This document shows positions 11,305 through 40,881 of a stretch of 45,484 bases of DNA, piece after piece. This stretch comes from Chiloscyllium plagiosum (taxonomy: Eukaryota). The notes beneath the pieces are model-generated. The model was given only the letters and a program-made list of their open reading frames with translations. It was not told the origin of the DNA and searched no databases. Position numbers and translations under genes: made by a program. The stretch's first letter is position 1, and every line of letters begins with the position of its first letter. The DNA lies in NCBI RefSeq assembly GCF_004010195.1, contig NC_057718.1, forward strand, positions 46,325,142 through 46,370,625, given 5' to 3'.

Positions 11305-12718
11305 GTAAATTACTGCAGATGCTGGAATCTCTACTGAAAGCAACAAATGCTGGAGATCACAGCAAGTCAGACAACATCCATGAAGAGAAAACAAGCTAAT
11401 GTTTTGAACCGAGATGACTCTTCATCAGAGCTGAAATGACATGTGGAGGGGTAGCATTAATGCTATTGTTGAGGGGGAGTGTGGGAGTGGTGAGATGTAG
11501 AATTCTGGGGAGAAAAGAAGTTGATAGTTCGGATTAAACAATGGGAATGTCAAAATGGCAGAACAATGGTGTGTCTAACTGCCAGACTTGAAAGAACAGG
11601 CAGTCCTATGGGGGTGTGCGGAAGGGAAGAGAGGACATGGTGATAGGGAATCTAACAACTAAAGCTAAAAGAAAGGGAGGAAACTGGGGAAGGTTTACAA
11701 CTTGAAGGTGTGGAACTCAATATTAGGTTACGAAAGCTGTAATGTGCCTAGTCTGAAGATCAAATGTTGTTCCTCCAGTTTGCACTGTGATTCACTGGAA
11801 CACTGCAGCATACCGAGGACAAACAGGTGGGCATGCGAGCAGGACGCTGTGTTAAAATGACTGGGTACGGGAAGGTCAGGCTTGTGCGCAGACCAGAGGT
11901 ATTCTGTGAAGTGGTCACCCAGTCTGCGTTTGGCTTCTCCAATGTAAAGTAGGCCACTGTTTATGCCTTTGGATGGTGAGTGGGGAGGAGGTGAAGGGAA
12001 AAGTGTTGCACCTTCTGGGATTATGTGGGAGGTATGGTGGGAAAGGGGCTTTGGTGTTTTGGGCCATGGAATAGACTTGGGTGTTCAGAGGAAATGATCC
12101 CTGTAAAATGTAGACAAAGTAAGTGAGGGGAAGATGTATTTGGTGGTGTTGTTCTGCTGGAGTTGTCTGAAATGGCAGAGAATGATCCTTTGAATGCAGA
12201 GGCTGGTGGGATTCAAAGTGAGGACAAGGGGAACTTGGTCACACTGTTGTGAGTGATGGGAAGGTGCAAGGGCAGATGCATGGATGATAGGCCGGATGCA
12301 GTTGAGGGCTCTGTCAACCACAGTGGGCAGGAAACTACGGTCATGGAAGAAGCAAGCCATGTTGGAAGTGTTATGGAAGGTGACATCATCCAAACAGATG
12401 CAATGGAGGAATGAAGGATCTGAGAGAATGGGATGGAATCCATGCAGGACATGGGGCGTGACAAGTTGTAGTGGAGGTAGCTATGGGAGTCAGTGGCTTT
12501 TTAGTGGATGGAAGTGGACAGTTTATTCCTCAAAATGGAGACAGAGACATCAAAGAAAGGAACAGAAGTATTGGAAATGGACAATGTGACAGTTATAGAG
12601 GGGTAGAAATTGGAGGCAAAATGAACAAAGTTTTCAAGGTCCTGGTGGGAGCATGAAGCGGCACCAAAGTAGCCATCGATGTAACATAAATGCTGCCCCG
12701 TCTACACTTCACTTCAGC
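11305..12718 (-). mobile_element. Penelope-like element, 5'-truncated: RT C-terminus/linker, GIY-YIG endonuclease and pLTR, with an inverted pLTR piece at the 5' end
   Basis: 14-bp TSD CCAGATATGGAGGG (11291-11304 / 12719-12732). The minus strand gives 'GLLYIGE.KRRLGDHFTEYL' (YIG motif) near 11900-11955 and 'VPLVLTLNPTSLCIQRIILCHFRQLQ'. A decayed hammerhead lies at 11395-11430, and 12686-12718 is an inverted copy of 11430-11462. Confidence 0.85.
11395..11430 (-). ncRNA. Decayed minimal hammerhead ribozyme motif
   Basis: Minus strand CT-CTGATGA-A-GAGTC-ATCTC-GGTTC-AAAACATTA-GC. The conserved GAAA reads AAAA (consistent with CpG decay), so it is probably inactive. Confidence 0.6.
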
Positions 12719-12801
12719 CCAGATATGGAGGGACTGTCTTATATGGGTCAGTTGAGTAGATTGGGCCTATAATCATTAGTGCATTGGAGAATGAAAGCTG
12801 G

Positions 12802-12948
12802 GCTTATTGGAACATTCAAATTCCTGGAGGACCTAACAGGGTAGATGTGGAAAGGTTGTTTCCCATTTAGCCCTAGACTGTGTTACAAGGGGAACCTGTC
12901 CGCATCTACCCTGCTAAGTCCCCCAGGAATTTGTATGTTCCAATAAGC
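12802..12948. repeat. Inverted duplication (56-bp arms 12802-12857 / 12893-12948) inside the CR1 3' coding region
   Basis: GCTTATTGGAACATTCAAATTCCTGGAGGACCTAACAGGGTAGATGTGGAAAGGTT matches the reverse complement of the right arm with about 6 mismatches. Confidence 0.9.
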
Positions 12949-13317
12949 AGAGTCCAGGATTAAAGGGCATAATCTCATAGTAAAGGGTCACACCTTCAAT
13001 ATAGAGATGAGGAGGAATTTGTTCTGTCAGAGGGTGGTGAATCTTTGGATTTTGTTACTGCAGAGGACTGTAGGGGTTGGGTCATTAAGTACATTCAAAG
13101 TTGAGATATCCAGATTTTTAATCAGTATGGGAGTCAAGCACTATGGGGTGAAGACAGGAAAGTGGGGTTGAGGATTATCAGATTAATCGTGAACTCAGTG
13201 AATAGCACAGCAGTCTCAATGGGCTGAATGGACTACTTCTGCTCCTATGCCTTATGGCCTTATGGATGAAGTCAGCCACATAAATGACTCTGAGATTGAG
13301 GTATGCTGTAAACAAAG

Positions 13318-14024
13318 TTAACCTCAAACTAGCCAGCCTTCCAGTTTCTGTTCCTCATAAGATCAAAACTAAGTTTAAGCCTCACCCACCTTCCACACAC
13401 AGTCAAAGCTGCAGTTAGAATTTTCTTTTAGATGAAATTCCCTACAGTGTGGAAGCAGGCCCTTCAGCCCAACCAGTCCGCACCAACCCTCTGGAGAGAA
13501 CCCACCCAGACTCATTTCCCGCTGACTAATGCACCTAACACCATGGGCAATTTAGCATGGCCAGTTCACCTGACCTGCAGATCTTTGGACTGTGGGAGGA
13601 AACCAGAGAACTGGGCACAGTGGCTCAGTGGTTAGTACTGCTGTCTCACGGCATCAGGATCCCAGGTTCGATTCCAGCCTTGGGTGACTGTCTGTGTGGA
13701 GTTTGCACATTCTCCGTGGGTTTCCTCCGGGTGCTCCGGTTTCCTCCCACAGTCCAAAGATATGCAGGTCAGGTGAATTGGCCATGCTAAATTGCCCATG
13801 GTGTTAGGTGCATGACTCAGTGGGAAATGTGTCTGGGTGGGTTACTCTTCAGAGGGTTGGTGTGGACTGGTTGAGCCAAAGGGCCTGTTTCCACACTGTA
13901 GGGAGTCTAATCTAAAAAAAATTCTAACTGCACCTTTGACTGTGTGCAGAAGGTGGGTGAGGCTTAAACTTAGTTTTGATCTTATGAGGAACAGAAACTG
14001 GAAGGCTGGCTAGTTTGAGGCTAA
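13318..14024. repeat. About 290-bp-arm fold-back inverted duplication of an HE1 SINE 3' part plus about 105 bp of its flank
   Basis: 13322-13393 is the exact reverse complement of 13949-14020 (72/72). The arms continue inward through the SINE tail, and the loop (about 13612-13732) is the SINE tRNA head. Confidence 0.92.
13612..13914 (+). mobile_element. HE1-type tRNA-derived SINE
   Basis: A box TGGCTCAGTGG, B box GGTTCGATTCC, central TGTGTGGAGTTTGCACATTCTCC...GGTTTCCTCCCACAGTCCAAAGAT, and a CR1-like tail GGGCCTGTTTCCACACTGTAG. Confidence 0.92.
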
Positions 14025-15006
14025 TGGTAGAATCTACAGAATGCTGCACAGTGACCAGTTGAGATACTTGTAAGTACAGGAAAAGTAACCAAAACAAGTT
14101 AAGAGAGCGTAAACAACTGCTTTATCTCTAAGAAGAGCTGGAGCTGAGGAGAATTCTCCACAACATTGTAGCACACATTTGGGGGTGGCTCTCGACACAA
14201 GGAAATCACTTCTAGCTGACTTGTGTTTTCTGAGAGAATTATTGGGAGAAGTAGGAAGCAAACCTGAGTACAGAGCAAACATAGCTATAAACTATATTGT
14301 TCAATTAATAGTACTTGTTCAGTTATTCTTTCTACATACAATAACGTTTGCTTTGTTAAAGATATTCAAAACTTGTGACATCATTCTACTGGTTAAAATG
14401 AAGTTTTCAGATTTCAGTTCAAATGTTAACAGACCTTGACTAGATGGTAATACTTCAAACAGCTTGACAAGAGCAAAGGCAAGTCAAAAACACCTTTTCT
14501 ACAAATTGGATTATATGGCCCCTAGTTTGGGGAGGGGAGGGGTGAGGATTTCCCTCGTGCGACTAAGCTGATACTCAACTGGGAGCAAGTTACAAGCAGG
14601 AGGAGGTAATTTGGTCCCTAAAGCCTACTCCATCATTCAATAAGATTATTGCTGATTTGATTGTGGCATCAGCTCCATCTTCCTGCCTACTTTTGTTAGC
14701 AAAACATTTGTCTACCCCTACCTTAAAGATACTCAATGACCCTGCCTCCACCACTCACTGGGGAAGAGAGTCACACAGACTTATAATACTCTGAGAGAAA
14801 AAGTATCTCCACATCTCCAATTTAAATGGAAGACTCTTCATGGTTAAAATGGTTCTATTGTCTCCCACAAAAGGAAATATTTTCTTTGCAACAAACCAAC
14901 TCAGCACTGTCCCCATCACTTGTCCTACCTGCCTATCTTCCTTTCCACCTATCCACTCCACCCTCCTCTCTGACCTATCACCTTCATCCCCACCCCCAAT
15001 CACCTA

Positions 15007-15623
15007 NNNNNNNNNNNNNNNNNNNNNNNNNNNNNNNNNNNNNNNNNNNNNNNNNNNNNNNNNNNNNNNNNNNNNNNNNNNNNNNNNNNNNNNNNNNNNN
15101 NNNNNNNNNNNNNNNNNNNNNNNNNNNNNNNNNNNNNNNNNNNNNNNNNNNNNNNNNNNNNNNNNNNNNNNNNNNNNNNNNNNNNNNNNNNNNNNNNNNN
15201 NNNNNNNNNNNNNNNNNNNNNNNNNNNNNNNNNNNNNNNNNNNNNNNNNNNNNNNNNNNNNNNNNNNNNNNNNNNNNNNNNNNNNNNNNNNNNNNNNNNN
15301 NNNNNNNNNNNNNNNNNNNNNNNNNNNNNNNNNNNNNNNNNNNNNNNNNNNNNNNNNNNNNNNNNNNNNNNNNNNNNNNNNNNNNNNNNNNNNNNNNNNN
15401 NNNNNNNNNNNNNNNNNNNNNNNNNNNNNNNNNNNNNNNNNNNNNNNNNNNNNNNNNNNNNNNNNNNNNNNNNNNNNNNNNNNNNNNNNNNNNNNNNNNN
15501 NNNNNNNNNNNNNNNNNNNNNNNNNNNNNNNNNNNNNNNNNNNNNNNNNNNNNNNNNNNNNNNNNNNNNNNNNNNNNNNNNNNNNNNNNNNNNNNNNNNN
15601 NNNNNNNNNNNNNNNNNNNNNNN
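15007..15623. other. Assembly gap (617 N)
   Basis: Run of N. Confidence 1.
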
Positions 15624-15708
15624 NCACCTATTGCACTCTACGCTATTTTCTCCCCACCCCCACCCTCCTCTCATTTATCTCTCCACTCTGCAGGCTCTCT
15701 GCCTCTAT

Positions 15709-15740
15709 TCCTGATGAAGGGTTTTTGCCCGAAACATCGA
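15709..15740 (+). ncRNA. Minimal type I hammerhead motif with mutated stem III
   Basis: TC-CTGATGA-A-GGGT-TTTT-GCCC-GAAA-CATC-GA. Both core boxes are intact, but the stem III palindrome ACGT has become ACAT. Confidence 0.65.
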
Positions 15741-15937
15741 TTTTCCTGCTCCTCAGATGCTGCCTGAACTGCTGTGCTTTTCCAGCACCACTCTAACCAC
15801 AAAAGGAAATATCCTTGCAACATTATTCTGTCAAGTGCCTTCAAGAGCTCATTGTTTTAAACTGTAAGGTGTCGAACCAGAAGTAGGCCATCAACCAATC
15901 AAGTGTTCCATCATTCAAAGAGATCGTGTATCAAATA

Positions 15938-16097
15938 ATCCTCACCTCTCATTCTTCTAAATCCTCACCTCCCATTCTTCTAAATCCTCACCTCCCATTC
16001 TTCTAAATCCTCAACTCCATTCTTCTAAATCCTCACCTCCCATTCTTCTAAATCCTCACCTCCCATTCTTCTAAATCCTCACCTCCCATTTTTCTAA
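15938..16097. repeat. Minisatellite, 7 x 23 bp (ATCCTCACCTCCCATTCTTCTAA)
   Basis: Seven near-perfect tandem units, one of them 22 bp, amplified at a junction inside CR1 sequence. Confidence 0.95.
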
Positions 16098-16692
16098 CCT
16101 CAAATGGATACAGGTCCAACCTGCTAAAGCTTTTCCTCATGAGGTATCCTTCAAGCCAGGCATCAGTCAAGTGAATCTCCTAATGCAATTACATCTTTCT
16201 TAAATAAGGAGATCAAATCATACCCAGGATTCTAGATGTGGTCTCACAAATGCCCTGTATAGCTATTGCAAAATATCCTGCTTTTCATATTCCATTTCCT
16301 TTGCAACAAACAATATTCTACATGCTTTCCTAATACCTTGCTGTATCTGCACACTAGTATTTTATGATTCAGGTGCCAGGACACCCAGAACTCACTGTCC
16401 TACTGAGGTCTACTATCTTCCCTCAAATAGGTAATGTGCTGCTTTTCTATTCTTCCAGTCAAAGTGGACAAGTTCACATTTTTCCACATTATACACCAAC
16501 TGCCAAATTTTTGCCACTCAGCTAACATATCCAAATCTCTTTGCAGGGTCCTTTTATTCACATCATAACATAATTCCCTATCGTTGTGTCATCAGCAAAT
16601 TTAGTGAACATACATTCAGTCCCTTTGTACAAGTCATTGATATACACTGTGAATAATTGAAGCACTGATCCCTGAGCACTTCACTCTTTGAA

Positions 16693-17010
16693 GCGGCACA
16701 GTGGCACAGTGGTTAGCACTGCTGCCTCACAGCGCAAGAGACCCGGGTTCCAATCCCGCCTCAGGCGACTGACTGTGTGGAGTTTGCACGTTCTCCCCGT
16801 GTCTGCGTGGGTTTCCTCCGGGTGCTCCGGTTTCCTCCCACAGTCCAAAGATGTGCAGGGTCAGGTGAATTGACCATGCTAAATTGCCCGTAGTGTTAGG
16901 TAAGGTGTAAATGTAGGGGTATGGATGGGTTGCGCTTCGGCAGGGCGGTGTGGACTTGTTGGGCCGAAGGGCCTGTTTCCACACTGTAAGTAATCTAATC
17001 TAATCTAATT
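16693..17010 (+). mobile_element. HE1-type SINE, full length and young
   Basis: GCGGCACAGTGGCACAGTGGTTAGCACTGCTGCCTCACAGCG head; CpGs retained; (TAATC)n tail. Confidence 0.95.
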
Positions 17011-18224
17011 TAATCTTGCCAACCTAAAAATGATCCATTGATGCCTACTCTCTGCTTCGTGTTACCTAATAAATTCTTTACCTATTACTACCATCCATAA
17101 GGTTTTATTTTGTATTGTAACCTTTAATGTGGCACCTCAGTTCACTTGAGCCCATACCTTTCGTAAATCCAAGAACACTCTCCCCACAGATTCCCCTTTA
17201 TCCACGTTGCTCGTTACTTCCTCAAAGAATATTAACAAATTAGCCAAACATAATTTCCCTTTCACAAAACCATGTTGACTCTGGCTGATTATTTTGAGAT
17301 TTTCCAAGTGCCCCACTATAACTCTTTAATAATTTTCAGCAGCAATTATGAGAGGATGGTAACTGGGCCTGTTGGGTCCAAGCTGGCAGAAAGTACTCTA
17401 AGTCAATGTTAAAGTCTGATGACCCTATACATCCATTCTGCATGTTTTCAGCATATGGGCAGCATACTATTAGTCAGGGCACTCGTCCAGGCTGCTCTCA
17501 AAGTAAGCTCTCACAACTAATAAACCTCAGAACCTCATAGCATTGTCAGCAATGGTGTCTCTATTGCCTTTATTGCAGTTGACCTGCTCTGTTCATTGCA
17601 ATGGTTTGACGAAGAGTTTTTACTGCTTCATAGCCATTACTTTGTGCTAAGAAGAGTTAAGTGATTATGTTTTACTAAATGTAATAATATCTAACAAATA
17701 CCTTCTGGAACAAATCCAACATTAACAAAGAGAGAGCAAAAAATATCGTAAAAAACGTCCTGATTTCTTTCAGTGAATTCTAATGAATGCAAGACAAATA
17801 TGTAGGTATCAGCTGCCAGATAACTGCTTTCAAATTAAGCACTAATTATTGTCAGGATTCACAAGAAAGTTATACCTTGTCATAAAAAGGCCAGTCTAGG
17901 TTGTGCCCAGTTCTGTATCAATTAATATTTAAGCAGTAATTACCGCAAACCCTATATTTTCTATGGTAATTAAGATATGATGTTACCTCTATTATGCAAA
18001 ATAATGGCAGAAATGAGCTAAAAAAAACATATTAAGTTATAGAAACTAGTTAACTATTCCATTCTTATTGTTACCTCCCACAGTTGGCTATTCTGACTAG
18101 CTTTGCGATCAGGCTGGAGACTTTGCGCAGAGGCCTGAACAATATGTAATATATAGAGAAACAGGGCACAATCAGATGAGAAGTCAAGTGAGGTCTATCT
18201 CAATGTCAGGAACAACTTGTTTGC

Positions 18225-18423
18225 TTTTTCATTCATTCACAGAGTGAGGGCATTGCTGGCTGGGTGAGCATCTATTGCTCATTCTAATTGGCCAGAGTGC
18301 AGTGAAGGGTCAACAACATTGTCTGGAGACACATGTAAGCGAGATTAGGTGAAGATGGCAGATTCCCTCCCTAAAATGAACCAGGTGGGTTTTTCTGACA
18401 ATTGGCAATGGATTCATGGTCAT
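18225..18423 (-). mobile_element. SacSINE1-like SINE, 3' half
   Basis: Diverged match to 2005-2200 (GCATCTATTGCTCATTCTAATTG...GGATTCATGGTCAT). Confidence 0.7.
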
Positions 18424-18480
18424 AAATAAATATTCATTCCATCATATAGAACTTGAGTATTGCTTAGAAAAATCACTCTT

Positions 18481-19721: not shown

Positions 19722-19886
19722 ACGGTCTAGCAAGATCACATTGCAGAGCTCCGCAACGCAGTGCAAGTGGGAAGAACCTTTAACCCACCCTATCCGGACC
19801 ACCGTGATATCCTGGGAATCTGGAAAGGTTGTGGAGCCCCAGGAAACTGTTAAAAATCAACTTACCTTAGTTTTTGCCATCCAAGG

Positions 19887-20706
19887 ATGCGAAAGAAGGG
19901 AGGAGGAGCATCTGAGGCCGGGCCCATGGCTCAGCCTGCAGGATCCTCAGACTCAATTTCTTACCAGGCTCTGATGAAGGAGCTCATGAAATCTCGCGAG
20001 ATGTTGGGGAAGCAGATAGAGGAGAATCTGGCCCCGATCTCTATCATGCTGCAGAAGCATGAACAGCACCTGGGAGACCTGGAAAAAAAGATGGATGAGG
20101 TTGAACACAGAGACACAGTGGTGGAAGCTGGATCCAAGCACTGGAGACACAGGTCCATAGTTTGCGTGACCAAGTGGATGACCTCGAGAACAGGGGCAGG
20201 AGAAAAAATATTCGGATCATCAGTCTGCCCGAGGGTAAGGAAGGTGAGCGGCAGGCGGGATTTATTGAGGACTGGTTGCAGAAATTCCTTAATTTGGAGG
20301 CTGGAATGAGAGGCTTGAATATCGAGAAGGCTCACCGGGTCACGGCGTGGAGATCAGGTCTGGATCAATGTCCTCATCCTGTCTTGGTGCGGTTTCATCA
20401 TTACAGAGGTAAGGACAGAATTATGGAAGCTTCCAGATTCCAGGGGAAGGATCTGAAGGCCCTAGTTTACGAGGGCTCTAAGATCTTGTTCTTCAGGACT
20501 TCTCAGTGGCAGTGATCTGGAAAAGAAAATTCTATGACGGCGTCAAGAGAAGACTGAGGGAGCTTGGGATCCAGTACTCTCTGAGGTATCCAGCTGTGCT
20601 TCGGATGATCTTAGATGGATCTGTACATTTCTTTGACACATTGGAGAAGGCAAGAGACTTTGTGGACAAATTAACTAAATCTGAACAATTTATTATGTAC
20701 AAATAG
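19887..20706 (+). pseudogene. L1 ORF1 (coiled coil + RRM + CTD, Transposase_22-like), frameshifted
   Basis: Coiled coil 'LGDLEKKMDEVEHR', then 'DDLENRGRRKNIRIISLPEGKEG', 'IEKAHRV', 'PVLVRFHHY' and 'LRELGIQYSLRYPAVL', split over three ORF pieces. Confidence 0.88.
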
Positions 20707-21321
20707 TCGTGTTGTTTGGTTATGTCTTTGGTTTTTTTTAAATAAAAGGAAGTCCGCTTGGGGCTTTCTTTTTCTATCTTTTTTATTGGTAATAATCTGG
20801 TCTAAACTATGTTTGGCAGTGGTTGAGATGTGTACTTTCAATTTCTAAGTTAAATTATACAAAAGGATTGGTGGGGTACTTACCCTTTATTTTCAAAATG
20901 TCTTTATTCATATTGCTCTTCCATGGTGTATTATCTTTCTTTTCTGCTTGTGTTTGCAGTGTTGCTCTAGCTAGGAGGAGGGAAAATGGTTGGGATGGCT
21001 AGATGCTTACTTACAGGCAGTTTATACCCGGTTCAGGTATTTAAATGCCCAGGCTGCAGTATTGGCAGCGGGATGGGAAATTGGGTTTTGGGATGTGTAG
21101 TTGCCAGCTTTGGGCAGGGTGTCAGTTCCCCTATTCAGGTTTATATGTTGGTTAGTTTTTTGGTTTTGGTTGATTTCATCTTTGATAGCTTTGCAGGTTT
21201 GTTAACTGGAGTGGTTTTAGTTTATGTAGTTTTTATGTTCGATGGACCTTGCGACACTAAGGCTTGGCGATTTGTGGTTCGAGTTTGTCCTCTGTAGAAT
21301 CTAAATGTTACCGCAGAAGTT

Positions 21322-24300
21322 ATGGCTAATGACTTGATTAGAAGGTGCACCTGGAACAGCAAGGGGAGTCAGTCACCAATTAAGAGGAAGAAGGTACTTT
21401 CGAGCCTTAGAAAGGAAAAGATGGATATTGCTTTGTTACAGGAGACATACTTGGATGATGGGGAGCATTTGAAACTACAGCAGAATGACTTTGATCAGGT
21501 TTACTTTTCATCTTTTAACACCAGAAGTGGGTGAGTGGCTGTATTGATTAGAAGGAATCTCCCATTTAAGTTACTAGAGTGTGTTAAAGACACACCCAGG
21601 AGGTTTGTAATCCTCAAAGCCCTGATAAATGGGGAAGAATGTGATGTTTTAAATGCTTATTGCCCTCTAAATTGTGTTCTCTAAATTGATCAGTCTCGGG
21701 TCCCAGCATATTGTTAGAGGGGGAGATTTTAACTGTCTCATGGATCCCACAGTAGACAGGTTGCCCAAAGGCCCCTCGATACCCTCTGTACAAACTAAAC
21801 AATTAGTGGATCTGTGTGTGGAGTAAGGGTTGGTGGATGTCTGGAGGCGTCTCCACCCTACAGGTAGGGATTTTATGATTTTTTCCAATCTGCACAGATG
21901 TTACACCAGGATTGATTTTCTTTCTGACCCCCGTGGCAACCCAGGACAGGGTGGCATCTTGTACGATTGGTAATATTACCATCTCTGATCATGGCCCAGT
22001 GTCCCTGTTGGTTAAGATTAAGGATGTTACAGTGGGCCCAAGGCACTGGCCAATGGATCCCTTTATCCTTAAGGAAAATAAGTTTGTGGAGTACTTTTCC
22101 AGGGAATTTTGGGCGTTCTTACACATTAACTCAGGCTCAGTTAGTAGCCCATCTATCCTTTGGGAAACTGTAAACGCCTATGCCAGGGGGTTAGTTATTT
22201 CCTACTCTGCCTGTAGGAAGCGGCAGAAGGGCGAGCAGCAACGTCTCCTCAAAGCACGATTGAAGGCAGCTGAGAAAGGCTTACTTTGACAGGCCCTCTT
22301 GATGAGGCTGCAGAGGATTACAGCGCCGTGGTCTGCATTGAATTTCGTGCTCACAAAGACATCAAAGAAGGAACTTACTTTTGCAAAGCTAAGGTTATAT
22401 GAACGTGGTGACAAGCCAGGCAAGTACTAGCATATCTCGCCAGAAAAAGGAGCGCCCTCAAACTGGGAAGGGTCTGGAAACCTAACATGTGATCCCAAAA
22501 AGATTAATGTGGAAATCCAGAGATTTTACTCTAAGTTATACCAATCTGAGAGTTGTGAGGAGGGGTGGACCAAGATGGAATCCTTTTTTAAGGATCTGGA
22601 GCTCCCAGGCGTGACTCCCTAACAAGAGTCCTTTCTCAATTCTCCCTTGTCAGAGCAAGAGGTGCAGGAGGCTGTGAAACAGCTTCAGAATGGGAAGGCA
22701 GCTGGTCCTGATGGACGTCCCAGTGAATTCTATAAGGAATTTATAAACATATTGTCAGGCCCGATGTTCAACATGTTCAATGACGCATACAGTCATGATC
22801 ATCTCCCGCCATCTCTAAGAGAGGTCAATATTTCGCTTATTCTTAAACAAGGGAAGGTCCCAGAGGACTGTGCTTCATACAGGCCCATTTCACTTTTGCA
22901 TTAAGGCTGGAAACTGTGTTAGCTTCTATTGTTAAAGAGGATCAAACGGGCTTCATAAAGGTTTGCAGATCCTTCAATAATGTTAGGAGGCTGCTTAAAG
23001 TAATTCAAGCATGTCAACAATAGTCAATCCAGGGATTGGTGATTTCTCTAGATGCAGGGAAGGCATTTGACCGAGTTGAGTGGCTGGACCTTTTTTATAC
23101 TCTGGAGCAGTTGGCTTGTGTGAAGCCTTTATAAGGTGGGTAAAGATTCTCTACAGTGACTCCCTCGTGGCAGTAATTACCAATGGGGTACCATCAAGCA
23201 ATTTTAACATTTTTAGGGGTAGCTGGCAGGGATGTCCCCTTTCATCATTGCTTTTTACATTGGTGATTGAATCATTGGCAGAGACCATTCATGGGGATCC
23301 TAATATATCAGCTCTAGGAGTGGGGTCAAAATTACATAAGATTTTGGTGTACACGGATGATGTCCTTTTTTTGTCAAATCCAGCAGTTTCGGTGCCTTGC
23401 CTGACAAAATACATCAGCACGTTTGGTGTCTCTTATAAGATTAATGTTGCAAAATCAGAGGCTATGCTTATGGGTGGTCTTACGAAGGTGCTAGGTCTTG
23501 AGGGTGAATATCAATTCCCATTTAAATGAGTACGGGGGGGGAGTTTGTTATTTGGGCACATTCATTACTCCAGTTCTTGACTGGTTGTTCAAAGCTAATT
23601 TTTTTTAATTATTCGACAAAATCAAACAAGACCTTCAAAGAGGGGAGGCGCTTTCGGTCCCATGGTTATGTCGGATAGTGTTTATTAAGATGAATATTCT
23701 CCCCTGTTTGTTGTACCCTAGACAGATGCTCCCCCTGATTTTGATAAGCCAATATTCAGGAGACTGAATGTCTGGTTCTGCTCTTTTATTTGGCATCGTA
23801 AGCAGCCCCTTATTAAATTAGTTAAACTGTAATTGCCTCACAGATTGGGGGGAGTGGATCTCCTGGACATCAAAAACTATCGCTTTTATTTTACATGAGT
23901 GATTGGGCTTGTGGGGACCCTCTTTCATTATGGCTAGATATCAAAACCTCTCAGGCAAAAGTGAGGACTGCAGATGCTGGAAACCAGAATTTAGATTAGA
24001 GTGGTGCTGGAAAAGCACAGCAGGTCAGGCAGCATCCGAGGAGCAGGAAAATCGGCATTTCAGGCAAAAGCCCTTCAAAGATTGATTTTCCTGCTCCTCG
24101 GATGATGCCTGACCTGCTGTGCTTTTCCAGCACCACTCTAATCTAATCAAAACCTCTCAGGCAGGGTGCCTCCTTACTAGCTTGCTGTTTCTGGACAAAA
24201 TAACCCAATAGTTATCAATACTATTACAGCATGGAGGGCAATTCGGCAGATGGAAGGCAATATTGGCAAAAGATCTTCTCTTACACATATAGTGGGAATG

Positions 24301-25215
24301 CTGGGTTTTCAACCAGGGATGATAGATTCAGAATTCAAACATTGGGCAGCTAGTGGTGTGTCTTGCATGGGCGATTTATTTGAGGGAATCACAATGATGT
24401 CCTTTGATCAGTTAGCACAGAAATACAATCTATCTACAGAGACCTCTAATTTTTTTCAAGTTAGGGATTTTATTCAAAAAAAGACTACACTTTTGACTGA
24501 TCCCTACAAATCCGACATCAAGAAGAGGGTGCTCAGTGCTGGAGTACACTTTCTCTTAGCACTTCATATCATCAATTGGAGGGTGCCCTCTCAGATGAGT
24601 TTGATCGACTCTGCAGGATGTGGGAGAGAGTGCTAGGTATTGAGGTCTCCTCAGAGGCATAGGAAGATTTTTGGGAAAACGCAAAAAAGATATCAATTTG
24701 CAATAGGACCCATGCTTTACAGTTAAAGATTCGCCATAGGGTCCACTTGGCTCCAGATCATTAGTCAAAATTTAAACCAGGGGTATCTTCAACCTGTCCC
24801 AAGTGCAAGGTTGGGACAGGCACACTTACCCATTGTCTCTGGTCCTGTGGTCAGCTTCAAACATACTACAGTGCTGTGGCAAGTGCAACGGAGGGGACTC
24901 TGGGTGTAAGCGTGGAGAAGGACTTGATCTCTCTTCTTTTGGGCCTGCCCAGTATGTTCCTTGTAGATGCACATAAGAAAAAAACCTTTCAACATCCTCA
25001 CTTTCGTCGCAAGAAAGTGTATCTTGTTTGGTTGGGTGCCCGAAAACCCTCCGGGCCCGTCGGATTGGTGGAAGATTGTTATGGAACAGATACCCTTGGA
25101 TTTTCTCGCAAGTATGGTACACCACAAAACTGAGAATTTCTATAAGACATAGTGACCCTTTTTGTAACACCTGGACACAGATTTGTCTGCCACACTAATT
25201 AGGGCTTTTATATAG
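21322..25215 (+). pseudogene. L1 ORF2 (APE endonuclease, reverse transcriptase, C-terminal CCHC), with many stops and frameshifts
   Basis: Endonuclease: 'TWNSKG', 'IALLQETYL', 'GGDFN', 'ISDH'. RT: 'AGPDG', 'YRPISLL', 'DAGKAFD', 'QGCPLS', 'YTDD'. Zinc knuckle 'CPKCKVGTGTLTHCLWSC' near 24795-24850. Confidence 0.92.
23958..24145 (-). mobile_element. Hairpin-shaped PLE-derived mini-insertion inside L1 ORF2
   Basis: 18-bp TSD ATCAAAACCTCTCAGGCA (23940-23957 / 24146-24163); 63-bp arms 23991-24053 / 24084-24146 with 1 mismatch; the loop is a truncated hammerhead on the minus strand (TGAAGGGCTTTTGCCTGAAATGCC). Confidence 0.9.
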
Positions 25216-25618: not shown

Positions 25619-25656
25619 GATTCCTGAAGAAGGGCTTATGCCCGAAACGTCGATTC
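25619..25656 (+). ncRNA. Minimal type I hammerhead ribozyme with an intact catalytic core
   Basis: GATTC-CTGAAGA-A-GGGC-TTAT-GCCC-GAAA-CGTC/GATTC: CUGANGA box, 4-bp stem II, GAAA box, palindromic stem III (ACGU), GUC cleavage triplet ending at 25651, and a short stem I. Confidence 0.8.
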
Positions 25657-25747
25657 TCCTGTTCCCTGGATGCTGCCTGACCTGCTGCACTTTTCCAGCA
25701 ACACATTTTCAGCTCTGATCTCCAGCATCTGCAGCCCTCACTTTCTC
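25623..25747 (+). mobile_element. 125-bp PLE pLTR insertion starting at the hammerhead
   Basis: Flanked by CTCTGATT (25615-25622) / CTCTGAAT (25748-25755); same family as 1-98. Confidence 0.85.
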
Positions 25748-26464
25748 CTCTGAATGAACAGTCCAGCAAAAGTACCACTAGGCCTTTACATCCCTATTGC
25801 TACATTTTTAAAATAAGCTCCTGTATCTTTTTGTTGTTACCAACTCGATTGATGGCAGATCTTATCTCATTAATAAATAGCTTTCTGGCATGGCAGCCAC
25901 CATGAGCAAACTGAACATTGAGAATTATTGACATGGAATTCAGAGTCAGTAATTGACAATTTCAGACCACTGCTGGTTCCAAAGGATCTCCATATTGGAC
26001 ATCAGGCACCAACATCTCAGGCTCACCTCTATGATTACCAGCTATGTACACCCAACATCCACAGATACTGCATCTGACAATTACCAGTCCTTAACAACCA
26101 CCACGGCATATCTCTGAAGTTGGTATACTTAGGTTGGTGCAGTGAAAAGGTCATAGACATTCTTCCTACATTACTGGGCATTCCTCCAGATGGCTAACAG
26201 TGCACTCACCAGACCCGTATGGTCTGATGTCCTTTACTGCCTACTCTGGGAGATGAGGATGTCTTGCCTCTGCACTATGCCATCAACTAGGCCACCAGGT
26301 CACTGCCGGCAAAGGATGTCATTGATTTTCCCCTTATCCGCCATTTCTGGGGCAAATACCAGGAATTGCAAAGAGCAATCCTGGACTGACAATAGTTGCC
26401 TGGGTGTGCAACAGACTTTTAAATATAGCACTGGCATCATTCATGCCAACATATTTTTTTTATA

Positions 26465-31123: not shown

Positions 31124-32076
31124 TCTGCTCCTGGGCCTGGCCAAACTGGCCATCAACAGATCCAGGCAGCGGGCCGTGGAGGGGGTCGTTAGGGCCGACT
31201 GCCTGCCCCTCTTCCGCGGTTACGTTAGAGCCCGGGTGTCCTTGGAGAAGGAGCACGCGGCGTCGACCAACACCCTGGAGTTGTTCAGGGAGAGGTGGGC
31301 GCCGCAGGGAGTGGAGTGCATCATTTCTCCCTCCAACTCTATTTTGATTTAGTCCCCACCCACCCCTTCACTGTTTTGATCACACAGCACTGCCCTCTGA
31401 TGTGAAGGGCAGTGCTTGTCACTGGCCACCCGGGAAGAAAAATAAAACAAAAAAAAAATAAACAGGAGTGTCTGATCTTTGGGCACCCGGTACGGAGGAA
31501 GGAGGCCAGGTCTGAAGACCTCCTCGTGGGTCTGCTCCTGGGCCTGGCCAAACTGGCCATCAACAGGTCCAGGCAGCGGGCCGTGGAGGGGGTCGTTAGG
31601 GCCGACTGCCTGCCCCTCTTCCGCGGTTACATTAGAGCCCGGGTGTCCTTGGAGAAGGAGCACGCGGCGTCGACCAACACCCTGGAGTTGTTCAGGGAGA
31701 GGTGGGCGCCGCAGGGAGTGGAGTGCATCATTTCTCCCTCCAACTCTATTTTGATTTAGTCCCTACCCTCCCCTTCACTGTTTTGATCACACAGCACTGC
31801 CCTTTGACGCGAAGGGCAGTGCTTGTCACTGGCCACCCGGGTGTTTTCCTATATTCCTGGTGGTGGAAATTGAATAAAGATTGGTGCACTTTGTGTCTTT
31901 CACTGTGTCTCACACCTGCACACACACACCATGGGTGCTGGGGAAAAAAATAAGCACTACCGCACTTAGGTGGTAAGAAAAAAAAGAAGAAAAAAGAAAG
32001 AAAAAAAAAGAAAAAGGGGAGTGAAGGGCAGTGTTTGTCACTGGCCACCCAGGTGTTTTCCTATCTAAAACAAAAA
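31124..32076 (+). mobile_element. Tx1-clade LINE: three tandem 3'-end fragments inside one TSD
   Basis: 14-bp TSD GACAACCAACACTT (31110-31123 / 32077-32090). Pieces 31124-31434, about 31465-31974 and 32021-32064 are each followed by an A-rich tract. The ORF2 C-terminus 'LLLGLAKLAINRSRQRAVEG...LFRERWAPQGVECII' occurs twice; the sequence is GC- and CpG-rich. Confidence 0.85.
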
Positions 32077-33783: not shown

Positions 33784-35029
33784 TATTAATGAAGTGGGAT
33801 CTCCAGGTAATAAGGTCATTAACAAGCAATAATCTCCCTTAATAGACAAATTGCTGATTTCTGGTGAGAATCTCACCTTAAACTTAGTGACAAGATGCAG
33901 TGAGTTGTCCCTGACACTGAGATAGACCTCACTGATTTGCTCACATGACTCTGTCACATTTCTCACCACATTGTTCAGCAGCATATAAAATCCCCCCGAA
34001 AATGTGGATCCACAGGAATAACAGAATTCACTCTTCCATATGACCATCAAAAGAAAGAATACAATGAAGTTGGTAAAATAGAGGTATACAGAGCAAAGAC
34101 ATTAGACAGCACTGAAGTCCTAACTACTTCTTTCTCTGCTGCAATCTTCCAATGTCACAAAATCCGGATTTTCATTTCTGTATGGATAAAAATAAAACAA
34201 AGATGCAGAATAAGCAGGGCTATTGGCATTGAACAGTCAGCATTTCCCATCATGCCCTCTCTGAATCAGACCACAATGTCAGGATTGAGCGCGAGTGCAG
34301 GAATCTGAGGTTGCTGTCTGACATTCACTGCTTCGCCACAGGATACACTGTCTCCATTATGATTAATTACCAGATTTTTTTTAGAAAAGAGTCCCTTATA
34401 GAATTTAAAAATTAAGTTTGTCTTTGATATTGCAGCTTTTGACTTAATTCCATAGGTTGGATTTTACAAGACGCTGAGATGACAGGCAAGGAAACGGGGG
34501 CAAAGTTGTCCATAAGAGAAAGGTATTGCCCCACTGCAATGTAACAGCAGACTGGAAACAGGATTTCTGCCCCTTAATGACTGGAAGCTGCCTCAGAGAG
34601 TTGCCAGAGTTTAGATGGCTGGCAACTCTGGTCCCTGCAGTTACAGGCACCAGGCAGCCATTGCTGGGATCAGACACAGTCCCTATTGGAGGTGGTTACT
34701 GGATAATAAGTGGGCAGAGGGTGTTTTGTTTGCTATGGTCAGGCTGGCAGTCCCTGGAAAGGCCAGTGGAAGTTGAATTTGACAGGTTGGGTTGGTAAAT
34801 GGAGATGTGAGATCTTGGTGGGATTTGCCTCAAGGGGAACAGGCAGTCTCAAAAGGTAGACACCGACCTGTCTATCTAAATGTGCCAACTCCCCTCCTGG
34901 TGTGGGCCTCCAGCTGCTGTATGTAAAATAGTGGCGGAGGTGGCATGATCTCTTTAATTGGTTATGATATGGCCATAGCACGTTGGGATCTGTAATATTC
35001 ATATGTCCCAAACAGTAGTAAAAGCAGAT

Positions 35030-35175
35030 TCAATACTTAAGGATTATTTTAAGGATAATAAGTTTGCAGGAATATTGAAGGGGATCATGGGACTAATTGG
35101 TGACCTATTTCAAACAACCAGCACAGATCCGAAGGGCCAAACAGCCTCCTACACTTTCGTATTCAATGATTTATG
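35030..35175 (+). mobile_element. Short decayed CR1 3' end
   Basis: GGGACTAATTGG...CCAGCACAGATCCGAAGGGCCAAACAGCCTCCT...ATTCAATGATTTATGA. Confidence 0.55.
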
Positions 35176-35282
35176 ATACCAGAGGAAATGTAGCAAACAT
35201 TTAATAATTGGCCATATAAGGGTCTTCATAGACCCATGGCAGTGTGGGCTTTCACTATCCTTTGCAAAATTTCATCCAAGAC

Positions 35283-36280
35283 AGCATTATACCTGGTCAG
35301 TATTATACCTAGTCAATGTTATACCTGGTTAGTATTATATCTGGTCTGTGGTATACCTGGTCAGTATTATACATGGTCAGTATTACAACTGCTCAGTGTT
35401 AAACCTGGGCAGTATTATACCTTGTCAGTATTACACCTGGTCAGTGATACACATTGTAAGTACTATACTTGGTCAATATTATACCTGATCAGTAGTCACA
35501 GAGTCTCAGAGTCATTGAGTCATTCAACATGGAAACAGACCATTCAGTCCAGCTTGTCTACACCAACCAATTTTCCCAAACTAATCTAATCACATTTGCC
35601 TATGTTTGGCCCACATCCCTCTAAACTTTTCCTATCCATGTACCTGTCCAAATGTCTTATGTTGTAGCTGTATCTGCATCGACCACTTCCTGTGGCAGTT
35701 CATTAGACACATGAACCACCGTCTAAGTGAGAAAGTTGCCCCTCGGGTCGCTTCTAAATCTTTCTTCTCTCACCTTAAAATTATGCCATCTGGTCTTGAA
35801 CTCCCCACCTAGGGAAAAGGTCTTTCCTATTCACCTCATCTATATCCTTCATTATTTTATAAACCTCTATAAGGTCACCCCATAGCCTCATACTCCAGGG
35901 AAAAAAGTCTCAGTCTGTCTAGCCTCTCTTTATAACTCCAATCCCAGTAATATCCATGTCATTTTTTTCTGCACCCTCTCCAATTTAACAATATTCTTCC
36001 GATAGCAGGGCAACCCTGTACTCCATTAATATACCTGGTCCATAGTATACCTCTCAGTGCTATGCCTGGACTCCAGTAGTATACCTGGCCAGTAGTTTAC
36101 CTGGGCTCCAGTAGTATACACAGCTAGTCGTATATCTGGACTCTAGTGGTATACCTGGCTAGTAGTATACCTGGACTCCAGTAGAATACATGGCCAGATG
36201 TATACCTGGACTCCAATACTATACCTGGACTCTAATAGTATACATGGCCAGAATTATACCTTCCCAGTAGTATATCTGAA
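35283..36280. repeat. Degenerate minisatellite (16-bp CAGTATTATACCTGGT on the left; 16/19-bp CCAGTAGTATACCTGG(ACT) on the right), split by a CR1
   Basis: About 13 units at 35283-35495 and a similar number at 36017-36280. Confidence 0.85.
35497..36015 (-). mobile_element. CR1/HER1 LINE 3' end inserted in the minisatellite
   Basis: Tail AGAGTCTCAGAGTCATTGAGTC; ATTTTATAAACCTCTATAAGGTCACC (reverse complement of GDLIEVYKI). Confidence 0.88.
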
Positions 36281-36284
36281 CCCT

Positions 36285-37461
36285 CAGAAGGCATTTGATA
36301 AGGTGCTGCACAAAAGGTTAAAACACATAGTAAGATCATAAGGGCTGAGGGGTAATTTATTAGCTTGGACAGAGGATTAGCCAACCAACAGAAATCATAG
36401 ATTCGGGATAAATGGGTCTTTTTCTTGTCCGCTGGCTTTACCTAGTGGGGTGCCACAGGGTTCAGGGGTCGGGCCTCAACTATTTACAACCTGTATTAAT
36501 GGCTCAGATGCAGGGTAATAGGTACTGCAACCACATTTGCAGATGACATTAAAATAAGTAGGAAAGTAAATTACAATTTTAAATTAAGGAATTTGCAAAT
36601 GAGTATGGATAAGTTGGATAATAGGTGAAAATTTGACAGTTAAAGTTTAACAGGGGACAATGGTGAGGTTATCCATTTTGACTGGAGGAATAGAAAGGGA
36701 ATATTGTCTAACTGGAGAGAGACTTCAGAGTGCTCAGTGCAGAGAGATCTGTGTGTCCTCATGCATGAGTCCTGGAAAGCCAGTATGCAGATATAGCAGG
36801 TAATTGGGAAGGCAAATGGAATTTTGGCATTTGTTGCTAAAGGAATAGAGTATGAAAATAAGGAAGTGTTACTGAAACTTTACAAGGCATTACTGAGACT
36901 GCACCTGGAGTATTGTGTACAATTGTGGTCTCCTTACTTGAGGAGGAATGTAGTTGTATAGGGGACAGTTCAGAGGAAGTTCACTAGATTGCATCCAAAG
37001 GTGAGAGGTTTGTCTTATGAAGTGAGATTAAACAGTTTAGACCGTACTCTCTGGAGTTTAGAAGGATAAGCGAAGATTTATTTGAGGTAAACAAGATGCT
37101 GAAAGTGATTGACACAGTACTCATTAAAAGGATGTTTCGTCATGTGAGGCAATCTGGAATGAGAGGTCATAGTTTTAGGATAAGGGGTAGCAGATTTAAA
37201 ACAGAGATGAGGAAAAATTACTTCTCTCAAAGAGTCCTAAATCTGTGGAATTTACTAGCCCAGAGTGTAATGGATGCTGGGAAATTGAGTCAATTTAAGT
37301 AAATTTAAGGAGCAAATTTAATTTGTAATGGATGAAAGGGTAATGGAGAATGGACAGGAAAGTGGAGCTGAGGCCAAGATGAGATCAGCCATGATCACGT
37401 TGAATAGTGGAGCAGGCTGAAGGGGCTGAATTGCCTACTCCTGCTCATAATTCTTATGTTC
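36285..37461 (+). mobile_element. CR1 LINE, 5'-truncated (RT to 3' tail)
   Basis: QKAFDKVLHKRL, SGVPQGSGVGPQLF, FADDIK, 'RGHSFRIRGSRFKTEMRKNYFSQRVLNLWN'; tail TTCTTATGTTC. Confidence 0.9.
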
Positions 37462-38776
37462 CAAATCAGGGCTGCAGGGTTGGCAGTGGGAAGGCCATAT
37501 TCTAGATTTTACAAGTTCTTCACCTCAAGTTCAAATCTGCCAGTGAGAAAGGGTAAAATCTAATTCCATTTGTCAGCCCCAATTTCACTCTCAGCAGAAT
37601 AGTTTAAAGTGGTTTGACTATTAGTGCTTTCCACCCTCTGGTTGGCTATCTGCGGGAATTTTTTAATGTGATTGGCTGTTTCGACGGCTTAACAACATCA
37701 CCACTGGGAATTTCCATGAAACATTGCAACAATCAATTTCTGGAGTGAGTTAAAATTCACAGCACGATGACAGATCTCGCAGCAACACTTCCTTCGAGGT
37801 CAGCAGTGAGGTCACCAACTTCACTCTTGACCAAAACCTCAAGGAAAAATTCCTAGGCCTCGGAGATGATGTGGGAACCACATTGTGAAAGACAGAAGTA
37901 AACAGAGCGGGAAACAGAAAGAAGAAGGCTGCTGCTTTTTTCTTTCAGTAGCGTCAATTCTCGGATTACTACCTACAATTTTGTTTTACAACCGCAGTGC
38001 CTTAATTGCACTGCTTGGCTGCAATTCTGACTGTCAGATCCAGAGTGGAATTCTACCCAAGCATCTTTATACATATGTGCAGAGCTCAACTCCCAACCGT
38101 TTAAAAATTTAAATGTATTGACACTGTTGGCAGGAGTGTCTGCACTGAATACATTTGAGTCAGCTCTATGTAAGATTTTAAAAGGATAAATTTTAGGAAT
38201 CTGCTTCCCTGGCACAGCCTGAATTCTTGATATATACTCCTGTTGGGCAAAGCCCATTGCCAATTCATAAAATTGCTTCTAAAGAATCACATTGGCACTA
38301 TGAATGCTTTATAAACCTGGTGTAATACAGCACTGCAGTTTCAATGCTTTTTAGTTTAGGAGCTACAGATACCTAAAATAAGATGTTTATAACCAATTTT
38401 AATATTGTTCGATAAGTTTATTAAAAGCAACAGTTAGGATATTTAGCAGTGGCTAAATAGAAAGAATAAAAACATTACCATGGCAGCAGAGAGCAGTTCA
38501 CCGATCCCCGAGAACATACAGACCATTGGCACAGAGCATGTTAATCTTAATAACTTGAGGAGGCAGCATTCTGCTCTCTAGCTGAACTCTTCCGCTGTTT
38601 TACTCCAAATTGCCAGGTCCATATTCCATCTTATGAAAGCAGCTGCCTGGCGAGCACAGCCCCCTATCTCTGAGCACTCGTTTCATATTTTATCTCCAGC
38701 AGCTGGTAGTTTACACTATGTCAATCACTTGTTTATATCTCTCTGACTCATGAATACAAGAAGCAGACCCAAGATG

Positions 38777-38956
38777 AGAGTGGTGCTGGAAAAGCACAGC
38801 AGGTCAGGCAGCATCCGAGGAACAGGAAAATCGATGAAGGGCTTTTGCTCCAAACTTCGATTTTCCCGCTCCGCGGATGCTGCCTGACCTGCTGTACTTT
38901 TCCAGCACTACTCTAAGCTTGACTCTAATCAGCATCTGCAGTACCCACTTCTGCCT
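38777..38956 (+). mobile_element. Hairpin-shaped PLE-derived mini-insertion
   Basis: 15-bp TSD AGCAGACCCAAGATG (38762-38776 / 38957-38971); arms 38777-38834 / 38857-38914; the loop is a truncated, decayed hammerhead GATGAAGGGCTTTTGCTCCAAACTTC. Confidence 0.88.
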
Positions 38957-39037
38957 AGCAGACCCAAGATGGCCAGGTCCTCTGTCCACCACTTTATTTA
39001 GAGGTCTCTTTGACTTTAATCATGCTGTGGACCATTT

Positions 39038-39236
39038 GCTAGTTCTTACTGGACACCAGACAAGAGGGTGCAAGACACCACCTGTGGTCCTCATGGTTTT
39101 GTCCATCTTAATCAGCAGCTCTTCAGCTTTCCTTAGAGTAGAGAAATCTGAAGAACTGCTGAGTAAGGTGGACAAAATCATGAGGGCCACGGATGGTGTC
39201 TTATACCCTCTTTTCTGGTGTCCAGTAAGAACTAGC
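39038..39236. repeat. 199-bp hairpin (about 93-bp arms, about 88% identical) at the 3' coding end of a CR1
   Basis: GCTAGTTCTTACTGGACACCAGA...TCTGGTGTCCAGTAAGAACTAGC; the outer 23 bp pair perfectly and about 11 mismatches were counted by hand overall. Confidence 0.92.
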
Positions 39237-40785
39237 TTTCTCTGCTCTAAAGAAAGCAACCCCAACCTATCTCATCTCTGTTCATAGCTATATTGCTCCA
39301 GGTCTGGCAGACATAAATGCCTCAACCAATAATGACAATTATCTCAATACTTCTTACCCACCTTAAGGACCCAATCTGTTGCTTTCAAGGACATGTATGC
39401 CAAGGTCTCTCTGATCCCTGGTATTTATTCGAGTCCTACCATTCTCCATATATTCCCTTGCCTTGTTGGGTCTCCTACGATGTATCACCACACACTTTTC
39501 AGGATTAAGTTCCATTTCCTATTCTTCTGCCCATCTGACCAGCCCACCTATAATCTAAGGCTTTCCTTCTCACTATGTACCACACCACCAATTTTCATGT
39601 CATCTGTGAACTTATCAATCAAATTTCCTGCATTCATATCGAGATCAATAACACTCACTGCAAACAAAAAGGGACCCGGCACTGAACCCTGTGGTATGCC
39701 ACTGATGCAAGCTTCCAGTCACAAAAACAACCTTTGACCTTCAGTCCCTGCCTCCTGCCACTAAGGTAATTTTGAATCTAATTTGCAAAATTTGCCTGGA
39801 TTCATTAGGGCCTTCCCTTCTTGATCAGTCTCCCATGCAAGACTTTGTAGAAGCCTTACTAAAGTCTAGGTAGACTAGATCTACTGTACTACCCTCATTC
39901 ACATTTACTGAAGTTGATGTTGACTAGATGCACTACTCTAACTTCATTTAAACATCTAATCACCTCCTTGAAAAACGCAATCAAATCTGTCAGGCATGAT
40001 CTCACCAGGACAAAGCTACGCTAACTACTTTTAATTAATCCTTGCCTCTCCAAGAGGAGATTAAGTCAGTCCCTCTGAGATTTTTTTCAATAGTTTCCGA
40101 GAGTTCACTGGTCTATCCCTACCATCCTTCTTGAGTAACGGTCCTGTATTAGCTATCCTACAATCCTCTTGCATCTCTACGGTGTCCAGAGAGGAGTGGA
40201 AAATTAACGTCAGGGTCCCTGCAAACTTTTCCCTTGCCTCCCACAGCAGCCTTCTCAACTAGGCCTGAGAACTTTTCCAATTGTAAGTCCTCAAAACCAT
40301 TAATACCTGCTTGCGGACAATGGAATTTGTTCATGTTTTTCACTGTCCTGTATGCTGATTTCCACACCAATGTCATTCTTCCCTGTTGTGAATATGGATA
40401 CAAAGTAATCAATAAATACTTCACCTACATCTTCCAACTTCACATACAGATTCCCACGTTGGACCTTAATGGGCCTTACTTTTTTTCCCTGGTTAACCTC
40501 TTGCCCCTAATATTAAATGCCTTTGGATTTTGTTCCATTTTACCTGCCAGTGTTTTCCTTTGCAACCCCTTCAATTTCTCAATTTATTATTTCTAAACTT
40601 TCTCAACTCCCCTGGGGCTTTTGGTGTTCTGAGACCTGGAAACTATCATAAACTTCCTTTTTTTCTCTGTATCTACGTCTGTACATTGCGCAATAGTCAG
40701 GATGCTTTGGAAGTTTTGATCCCACTCTTCACCTTTACAGGAACACATTGGCCCTGCACTTCCACTTGAAGACTCCCACTGCTTT
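39237..40785 (-). mobile_element. Degenerate CR1 LINE fragment
   Basis: 'GLLSLEQRKL', GIPQGSVPGPFLF near 39665-39700, and 'WEAREKFAGTLTLIFHSSLDTVEMQEDCRIAN'. Confidence 0.82.
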
Positions 40786-40795
40786 GAGTTAGTTA

Positions 40796-40881
40796 GTTAA
40801 AAATCACACAACACCAGGTTATAGTCCAACAGGTTTATTTGGAAGCTCTAGCTTTCAGAGTGCTGCTCCAATCACCTGATG
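40796..40881 (-). mobile_element. PLE terminal fragment (further family) with a hammerhead truncated in its core and a short inverted junction
   Basis: Minus strand GGAGCAGCACTCT-GAAA-GCTA-GAGCTTCCAAATAAACCTGTTGGACTATAACCTGGTGTTGTGTGATTTTTAAC; the missing TCACCTGATG appears inverted on the plus strand at 40872-40881. Confidence 0.65.

Follow-up and report, generated by a model that had tools for sequence, protein, structure and literature searches.

We analyzed a 45,484-nucleotide stretch of the Chiloscyllium plagiosum genome (hereafter the window; C9:46325142-46370625, assembly 3.56 Gb) that carries several fragments of Penelope-like elements (PLEs), whose pseudo-long terminal repeats (pLTRs) hold minimal type I hammerhead ribozymes. 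An earlier sequence-only reading had named five places in the window where the junction of a PLE insertion falls on the hammerhead, and had ascribed these junctions to the ribozyme fold or its cleavage product. The element type is known. Most of the observation stands, but stalling at the ribozyme is not supported as its cause. The clustering of 5′ ends is real, lies at the front edge of the ribozyme and is clade-specific. How PLEs copy themselves and what the hammerhead does is described as an open question in the accessible parts of two reports (PMC8557442, PMC11167929).

PLE fragments in the window

Element positions are counted from the C of the hammerhead CUGA box (+1), and the predicted cut of family A falls after +28. 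All five named places are PLE fragments, of families A1/A2, B and D. They are listed here with their target-site duplications (TSDs) and one further copy.

11291..11304, plus strand: 14-nt TSD, left copy (right copy, 12719-12732)
11305..12685, minus strand: family D PLE, 5′-truncated and broken, with the end of the reverse transcriptase (RT), a C-x4-C-x2-C linker region, a GIY-YIG nuclease remnant, the 3′ untranslated region, a degenerate hammerhead and the tail
11394..11432, minus strand: degenerate minimal type I hammerhead of family D, recognized from sequence and family consensus (C of CUGA, 11428; putative start A, 11432)
12686..12718, plus strand: inverted piece, element -34 to -1, with its 3′ end adjoining the TSD, whose sequence is in part like that of the element bases that follow
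14896..15796, plus strand: family A2 copy spanning an N gap, not truncated at the ribozyme (TATA-like TTTATC, 15674-15679; putative start A, 15707; hammerhead CUGA, 15711)
23940-23957 and 24146-24163: 18-nt TSD of the following pair
23958..24145, head-to-head: family A2 pair, minus arm from +126 to +5 (to 24077), plus arm from +22 or +29 to +88
25620..25749, plus strand: solo family A1 stub of the modal class, -3 to +126, preceded by a G at 25619 (hammerhead core, 25624-25651)
38762-38776 and 38957-38971: 15-nt TSD of the following pair
38777..38956, head-to-head: family A2 pair, minus arm from about +82 to +27, plus arm from +3 (38833) to the tail
40795..40869, minus strand: family B arm, +9 to +83, holding an AATAAA polyadenylation signal (40834-40839, minus strand)
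40870..40881, plus strand: flipped family B piece, -5 to +6

Four of the five places are 5′ junctions inside or next to the ribozyme. The stub reported at 25623 matches the element from the A of ATTC at 25620, beside the box, and an overlapping 6-nt duplication makes its start ambiguous between 25620 and 25623. The junction at 38833 was confirmed, with a direct arm from +3 that meets an inverted arm from +27 in a 2-nt overlap. That at 40869 was confirmed as well, and its arm starts at +9 and abuts the flipped piece; this insertion shows no TSD by eye, and its second arm lacks the 3′ part. The other two were borne out in part. The long arm at 24077 does start at +5, within an 18-nt TSD, but the claim that the inverted arm starts within 2 nt of the cut is insecure, as the short arm begins at +29 by strict local alignment and at +22 by BLAST against the copy at 15711. 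The inverted piece at 12686-12718 exists and its insertion has a 14-nt TSD, but it is the 3′ (priming) end of this piece that adjoins the ribozyme, and it is no 5′ truncation. Of the 26 fragments with an end between -120 and +54, no other comes within 10 nt of the box, and the piece is best read as a probable one-off internal priming event, helped by the partial match to the target end. TSDs of 14, 18 and 15 nt thus surround three of the five insertions. Two facts were absent from the earlier list: the main copy at 11305 has its own 5′ junction about 1.26 kb upstream, and the copy at 15711 reaches upstream beyond the ribozyme. A Pfam search with three window fragments returned no family.

Identity of the families

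GIY-YIG-type motifs occur in the A1, A2, A4, D and C2 consensus sequences and in long B copies. A CX2-5CxxC linker between RT and nuclease was found in A1, A2, A4, D and two long B copies; none was seen in the consensus stretch of C1/C2. In family B, which is a PLE, the linker and GIY-YIG motifs lie about 1 kb upstream. The linker motif is what assigns families A, B and D, provisionally, to the Neptune/Nematis clade; the hammerhead-bearing families C1 and C2 are Poseidon-like. Traits of endonuclease-positive (EN+) PLEs were present, namely two 3′ ends, an inverted 5′ copy and a TSD. Pfam matches on related loci were weak and below the cut-off (RVT_1, E 0.054; GIY-YIG, E 0.013 and 0.095; three of six proteins). 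In a protein search of the same genome, 150 of 42,701 candidates were scored, and 50 long loci yielded no full-length element. The hammerhead core boxes, stem II and stem I are present in every family consensus. Rfam did not detect the hammerhead and returned only hairpin look-alikes below the gathering score, and when the consensus sequences were folded as single strands, stem II formed in families A and B but the catalytic fold did not.

Distribution of 5′ ends

The sample comprised 1.645 Mb, made up of the window, 200 kb of adjoining sequence and 28 blocks of 50 kb, picked arbitrarily. References for the families, extended upstream, were built, and each 5′ end was called against its best long relative. 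Fragments below 40 bits or ending before +55 were excluded from the counts, as were neighbors of N gaps (18 of family A, one of family B). The hazard of a 5′ end is given as ends per nt at risk (family A, n = 311; B, n = 101; D, n = 46).

In family A, 94 of 311 ends fall at -6 to 0, a hazard of 10.6% per nt with the mode at -3. Downstream, the hazard is 2.3% at +1 to +7, 0.97% at +8 to +25, 0.85% at +26 to +33 around the cut and 0.5-0.7% further on; upstream of -16 it is 0.2-0.35%. Junctions therefore cluster at the hammerhead beyond chance, as the sequence-only reading had it, and they do so without the window (93/304 at -6 to 0, 10.5% per nt; 15 at +26 to +33, 0.76%; 43 at +34 to +60, 0.57%; 24 at -200 to -16, 0.29%). 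The peak is stronger in young family A copies (50/166, 13.3% per nt) and is also present in solo copies (34/159 at -6 to 0, 6.1% per nt). Family B reaches 5.6% per nt at -6 to 0 and 4.5% at -15 to -7; family D shows 15% per nt in a sample that, like the older A copies, includes subfamilies without a long reference. In contrast, none of 36 ends of families C1/C2 lies at -15 to +7, against 142/202 in family A and 43/72 in family B. The enrichment looked for at both the CUGA box and the cut was found at the 5′ edge of the box; at the cut, the sample had 17 ends where 14.1 were expected, which is no enrichment (P = 0.25).

The insertions are independent events, as had also been assumed. Among 114 inverted pairs, 109 geometries are distinct, three geometries recur (2, 2 and 4 times), and all 66 TSDs differ. 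The first 30 listed loci with a preceding G (see below) have 29 different flanks, with L219 and L220 being duplicates. Because flanks and junctions differ between copies, the peak is not the product of one amplified master.

An extra G and start-like motifs at the peak

The peak has its mode at an A within an initiator-like motif. A TATA-like box stands 31-33 nt above this A, and its hexamer starts at -34 (A1), -36 (A2), -34 (A4), -34 (D) and -39 (B1). The base preceding the A1 23-mer that starts at -3 was counted over the whole genome and was the templated C in 23,664 cases, G in 5,322, A in 2,478 and T in 1,022. G therefore makes up 60% of the non-templated bases (5,322/8,822), compared with 26% expected; the background frequencies of G and T are 21% and 29%. 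By hand count, G preceded 47 of 100 listed matches in family D and 29 of 100 at the cut site, which served as a control. Half of the first 30 listed G loci lack an inverted arm, and among these 15 solo copies, 4 have the G as one additional base separating the TSD from the element, and in 7 it is common to the target. Four of 12 T loci show a re-priming jump back into stem II.

Family B supplied a separate case, since the A at -7, 5 nt outside stem I, was forecast from the TATA spacing before the search. At -8, G was counted 2,744 times against 1,227 for A and T (69% G), and stem I begins only at -2. The sequence upstream was unrelated in all eight loci fetched. An untemplated 5′ G in L1 insertions has been read as a possible copy of the cap in the available part of PMC9341517.

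The RNA data came from one single-cell poly(A) run whose species match is uncertain; a second raw-read run gave no reads. Family A reads show an approximately 4-fold drop in depth across -3, and their top 5′ loose end lies at -3 (144 reads, mixed flanks). Because the copies are embedded, this drop repeats the DNA result and shows no start. Of the 151 family A loose ends, none of the 6 listed carried poly(A).

3′ ends and inverted pairs

The 3′ ends fall on two fixed sites about 35 nt apart, at about +90 and +126 in family A and at about +84 and +119 in family B. The 114 inverted pairs were found among 518 fragments, 66 of them with a TSD of 9-18 nt; a TSD of 11-18 nt encloses the head-to-head pairs made of one short and one tail end. 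A short arm is combined with a tail arm in 63 of 73 family A pairs (36.3 expected) and in 18 of 20 family B pairs (9.9 expected). Solo copies use both sites as well (91/170 the tail site, the remainder the short site). The longer arm stops at -9 to 0 in 49 of 76 family A pairs and extends further in only 6. At 100 A and B pair junctions, 30 overlaps, 11 blunt joins and 59 filled joins were counted; the overlapping microhomology often lies in ribozyme stems, and the arms of one pair usually belong to the same subfamily by eye. The sequence-only reading had proposed, as one option, that the ribozyme fold or its cleavage product primes cDNA fold-back. Because both outer ends lie on sites that solo copies also use, the two-site pairing favors priming from both DNA nicks over self-priming. 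Ribozyme stems may still provide microhomology where the arms join.

Three A-type copies (blocks L021-L025, L061-L065 and L071-L075) run past the tail into common downstream sequence, and in two of these, partial tandems, a second copy that begins at -4 or -13 is attached, which is consistent with jumps after run-off. In one subfamily of family A, an AATAAA lies near +77, just before the short 3′ end (16/251 copies).

Self-cleavage

Genome-wide, 425 matches begin at +29 compared with 256 at +33, an excess of about 1.5-fold at most after correction; the corrected ends at +29 number approximately 760, compared with the 8,822 non-templated junctions at -3. Young family A copies show 1.5% per nt at +26 to +33. 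3′ ends were also checked for an accumulation at the cut and at the front edge of the ribozyme, and neither place showed one. In the accessible part of PMC11167929, mutating the ribozyme did not change the insertion product, and neither starts nor ends of reads fell on the cut. At the most, cleavage contributes a minor route. The proposed role of the fold or of the cleavage product in making the junctions is not supported: the peak sits at the 5′ edge, some 31 nt before the cut, a place that RT reaches only after crossing the fold, and the extra G, the position of the family B peak outside stem I and the lack of any peak in two other hammerhead families speak against it further.

A poly(A) site behind the family B hammerhead

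Among 3,833 reads of that run aligned to a family B copy, poly(A) begins at +59 in 658 and at +56 in 560, on the sense strand. The reads represent mixed variants and therefore many loci. AATAAA or ATTAAA is found at +39 in 80 of 93 family B copies (46 AATAAA, 34 ATTAAA), followed by a GU-rich stretch, and a genomic A-run after the site was found in none of 43 copies. An example is the copy at L072:2630-2900, and the window arm carries the same signal. Immediately downstream of its hammerhead, family B has a poly(A) site that functions on the sense strand; these reads may come from host transcripts that use embedded copies. No poly(A) signal was found downstream of the hammerhead in the A1, A2, C and D consensuses.

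The family B repeat is therefore laid out as TATA-like box, putative start, hammerhead, poly(A) site and priming sites, and a poly(A) site 56-59 nt into the repeat would give an R region like that of a long terminal repeat (LTR), which is new here. In searches that reached few subscription papers, we found no paper stating the 5′ peak, the extra G or the poly(A) site. An RNA that ends at +56 has no priming sites at its 3′ end, yet 29 of 72 family B copies reach upstream of -15. For these, either read-through RNA or a transfer of the cDNA, after its run-off, to the repeat at the 3′ end would be needed, and read-through accounts for long copies equally well. Thousands of family B copies could terminate host transcripts.

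Other features of the window

The pair at 23958-24145 is inserted in a broken long interspersed nuclear element (LINE) at 19854-25200, which we take to be L1-like, with ORF1- and RT-like frames. A local duplication of about 200 nt at 60-447 takes in the tail of a PLE stub that is truncated by the left edge of the window. Nested inverted repeats with arms of 111, 82 and 113 nt lie at 13318-14024, and at 39038-39236 there is an inverted duplication of 94 nt with 11 nt between its copies. A 300-nt duplication with 98% identity lies at 31124-31830, 16- and 35-nt tandem arrays at 35250-36284 and a 23-nt tandem array at 15914-16120.

Discussion

Overall, after analyzing these data, we propose that the pile-up of 5′ ends is probably explained by internal twin priming followed by run-off of RT at the capped start of the RNA. 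In this putative order of events, the nuclease would nick both target strands, and the 3′ end at each nick would prime on an uncut RNA, at one or the other internal site. The two cDNAs would be extended as far as the cap, where a C would be added. Trimming of the cDNA ends may follow, with joining through microhomology, filler or brief re-priming jumps, and would generate the shoulder across the ribozyme. The ribozyme would mark the junction only by lying at the very front of the transcript. Cleavage and extension of both strands from two internal initiation sites have been described (PMC11167929, available in part).

Several observations weigh against this model. The initiator and TATA labels are presumed matches to consensus motifs, and no transcript 5′ end was seen: both read alignments list no molecule starts, and 93-95% of the reads continue into the flanks. 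In 7 of the 15 paired loci among the first 30 G loci listed, the G is explicable by the inverted arm's own sequence. The control at +1 was not clean, with 40 G among 100 listed matches by hand count, a value below the 60% at -3 (P = 5e-5) but above 26%. In families A and D, the coincidence of the putative start with the 5′ edge of stem I is exact; only family B separates the two, and the family B peak is broad, spanning -13 to +1 with 7 ends at -1 and 5 at -7. Moreover, C1 and C2 carry TATAAA at -52 and -46, yet show no pile-up at the predicted start (1/36 near -17), which the model does not explain.

That coincidence with stem I is what a physical block would predict. A folded, probably dimeric, hammerhead or a bound protein might stop or release RT at the 5′ edge of stem I, with the G as plain terminal addition; -3 is the first base of stem I in the A1, A2, A4 and D consensuses, the hazard is raised across the core (2.3% at +1 to +7, about 1% at +8 to +25), and some G excess is seen at +1. 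However, a block is expected at the 3′ side of the fold, where ends are not enriched, the G-marked ends of family B lie 5 nt outside stem I, and C1 and C2 possess hammerheads without the peak; we therefore consider such a block unlikely. Run-off at a template end made by self-cleavage would fit the roughly 1.5-fold excess of +29 over +33, the one or two window arms that start there and the elevated rate in young A copies. Set against the absence of significant enrichment in the sample, the more than eight thousand junctions at -3 and the dispensability of cleavage in vitro, as given in the available portion of PMC11167929, this route is highly improbable. Fold-back of the cDNA through ribozyme palindromes, put forward for the rotifer Penelope in the part of PMC3846280 at hand, would account for the microhomology at 30 of 100 A and B junctions, often in stems, and for arms that usually share a subfamily. 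But the outer ends fall on two fixed sites and are paired one of each far above chance, and the peak is present in solo copies, which carry no arm; we regard fold-back as very unlikely.

The junction could also reflect processing of RNA or DNA, given that in the Drosophila virilis Penelope the 5′ end of helix I marks where the intron stops (PMC4209133, seen in excerpt) and that a nuclease cut at an ATT motif is reported (PMC11167929, in the same available portion). D and A4 indeed have a pyrimidine tract and CAG before the box, and A1 and A2 have ATT at -3. Yet A1 and A2 lack the AG, the ends of A4 and D start at the A of the AG, and A4, B and D have no ATT there; no common upstream exon was found in 30 + 8 loci, and neither a splice acceptor nor a nuclease cut explains the G, which makes both highly implausible. 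Least probable of all, to the point of being scarcely credible, is an artefact, whether amplification of one rearranged master or missing upstream sequence of unrepresented subfamilies. Family D and the older A copies do include subfamilies without a long reference, and three geometries recur, but the peak is stronger in young copies, the TSDs are all different and the flanks are unrelated.

Internal twin priming with run-off at the RNA start can be carried further, to a scheme that we regard as possible but doubtful. Neptune-type PLEs might replicate through a retrovirus-like strong-stop, in which target-primed cDNA begun about 90-125 nt inside the RNA runs off at the cap. Most products would then be stubs or head-to-head pairs, and long copies would arise when the strong-stop cDNA jumps to the 3′ terminal repeat of the RNA. 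The family B repeat, a start-to-poly(A) segment of about 63 nt with the whole hammerhead, would be a true analogue of the retroviral U3-R-U5, and where a family lacks a poly(A) signal, cutting by the ribozyme could provide the 3′ end.

Tens of thousands of dead stubs constitute a natural map of the putative RNA start, of two priming sites and of the poly(A) site of one family, and they indicate uncut RNA as the usual template. The peak in Neptune-type families and its absence in Poseidon-like families of one genome offer a ready comparison, and the peak and priming sites give exact coordinates for cap analysis of gene expression (CAGE) and in vitro work.

In other retroelements, twin priming is known from L1, and strong-stop DNA and the U3-R-U5 arrangement are known from retroviruses. 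The likeness lies in the priming of two target nicks and the putative run-off at a capped end, and in a start-to-poly(A) segment that family B would carry at both ends. The elements described here are members of neither group: they do not prime on poly(A), their arms overlap in sequence, and the primer is target DNA and not a tRNA. Compared with EN+ Neptune and Nematis PLEs, as described in the accessible part of PMC8557442, families A, B and D share the C-terminal GIY-YIG domain, the Cys linker, the pLTR hammerhead, heavy 5′ truncation, an adjacent inverted copy and an optional 30-40 bp tail; truncation is described there without a preferred site, whereas we found a one-base peak, an extra G and the pairing of short and tail arms. 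The Poseidon element PAc of Anolis carolinensis is similar in having two internal initiation sites that delimit the tail, cleavage and extension of both strands and an uncut RNA template; the available text (PMC11167929) gives no mapped transcription start, and the Poseidon-like C1 and C2 show no 5′ peak here. The minimal hammerheads of metazoan PLEs (PMC4209133, in the excerpt) resemble those described here in their type I core, the extra base before stem II, a stem I of 3-4 bp and a palindromic minimal stem III. Cleavage and circularization are proposed in that excerpt, whereas the integrated stubs in C. plagiosum appear to derive mostly from RNA with the whole ribozyme.

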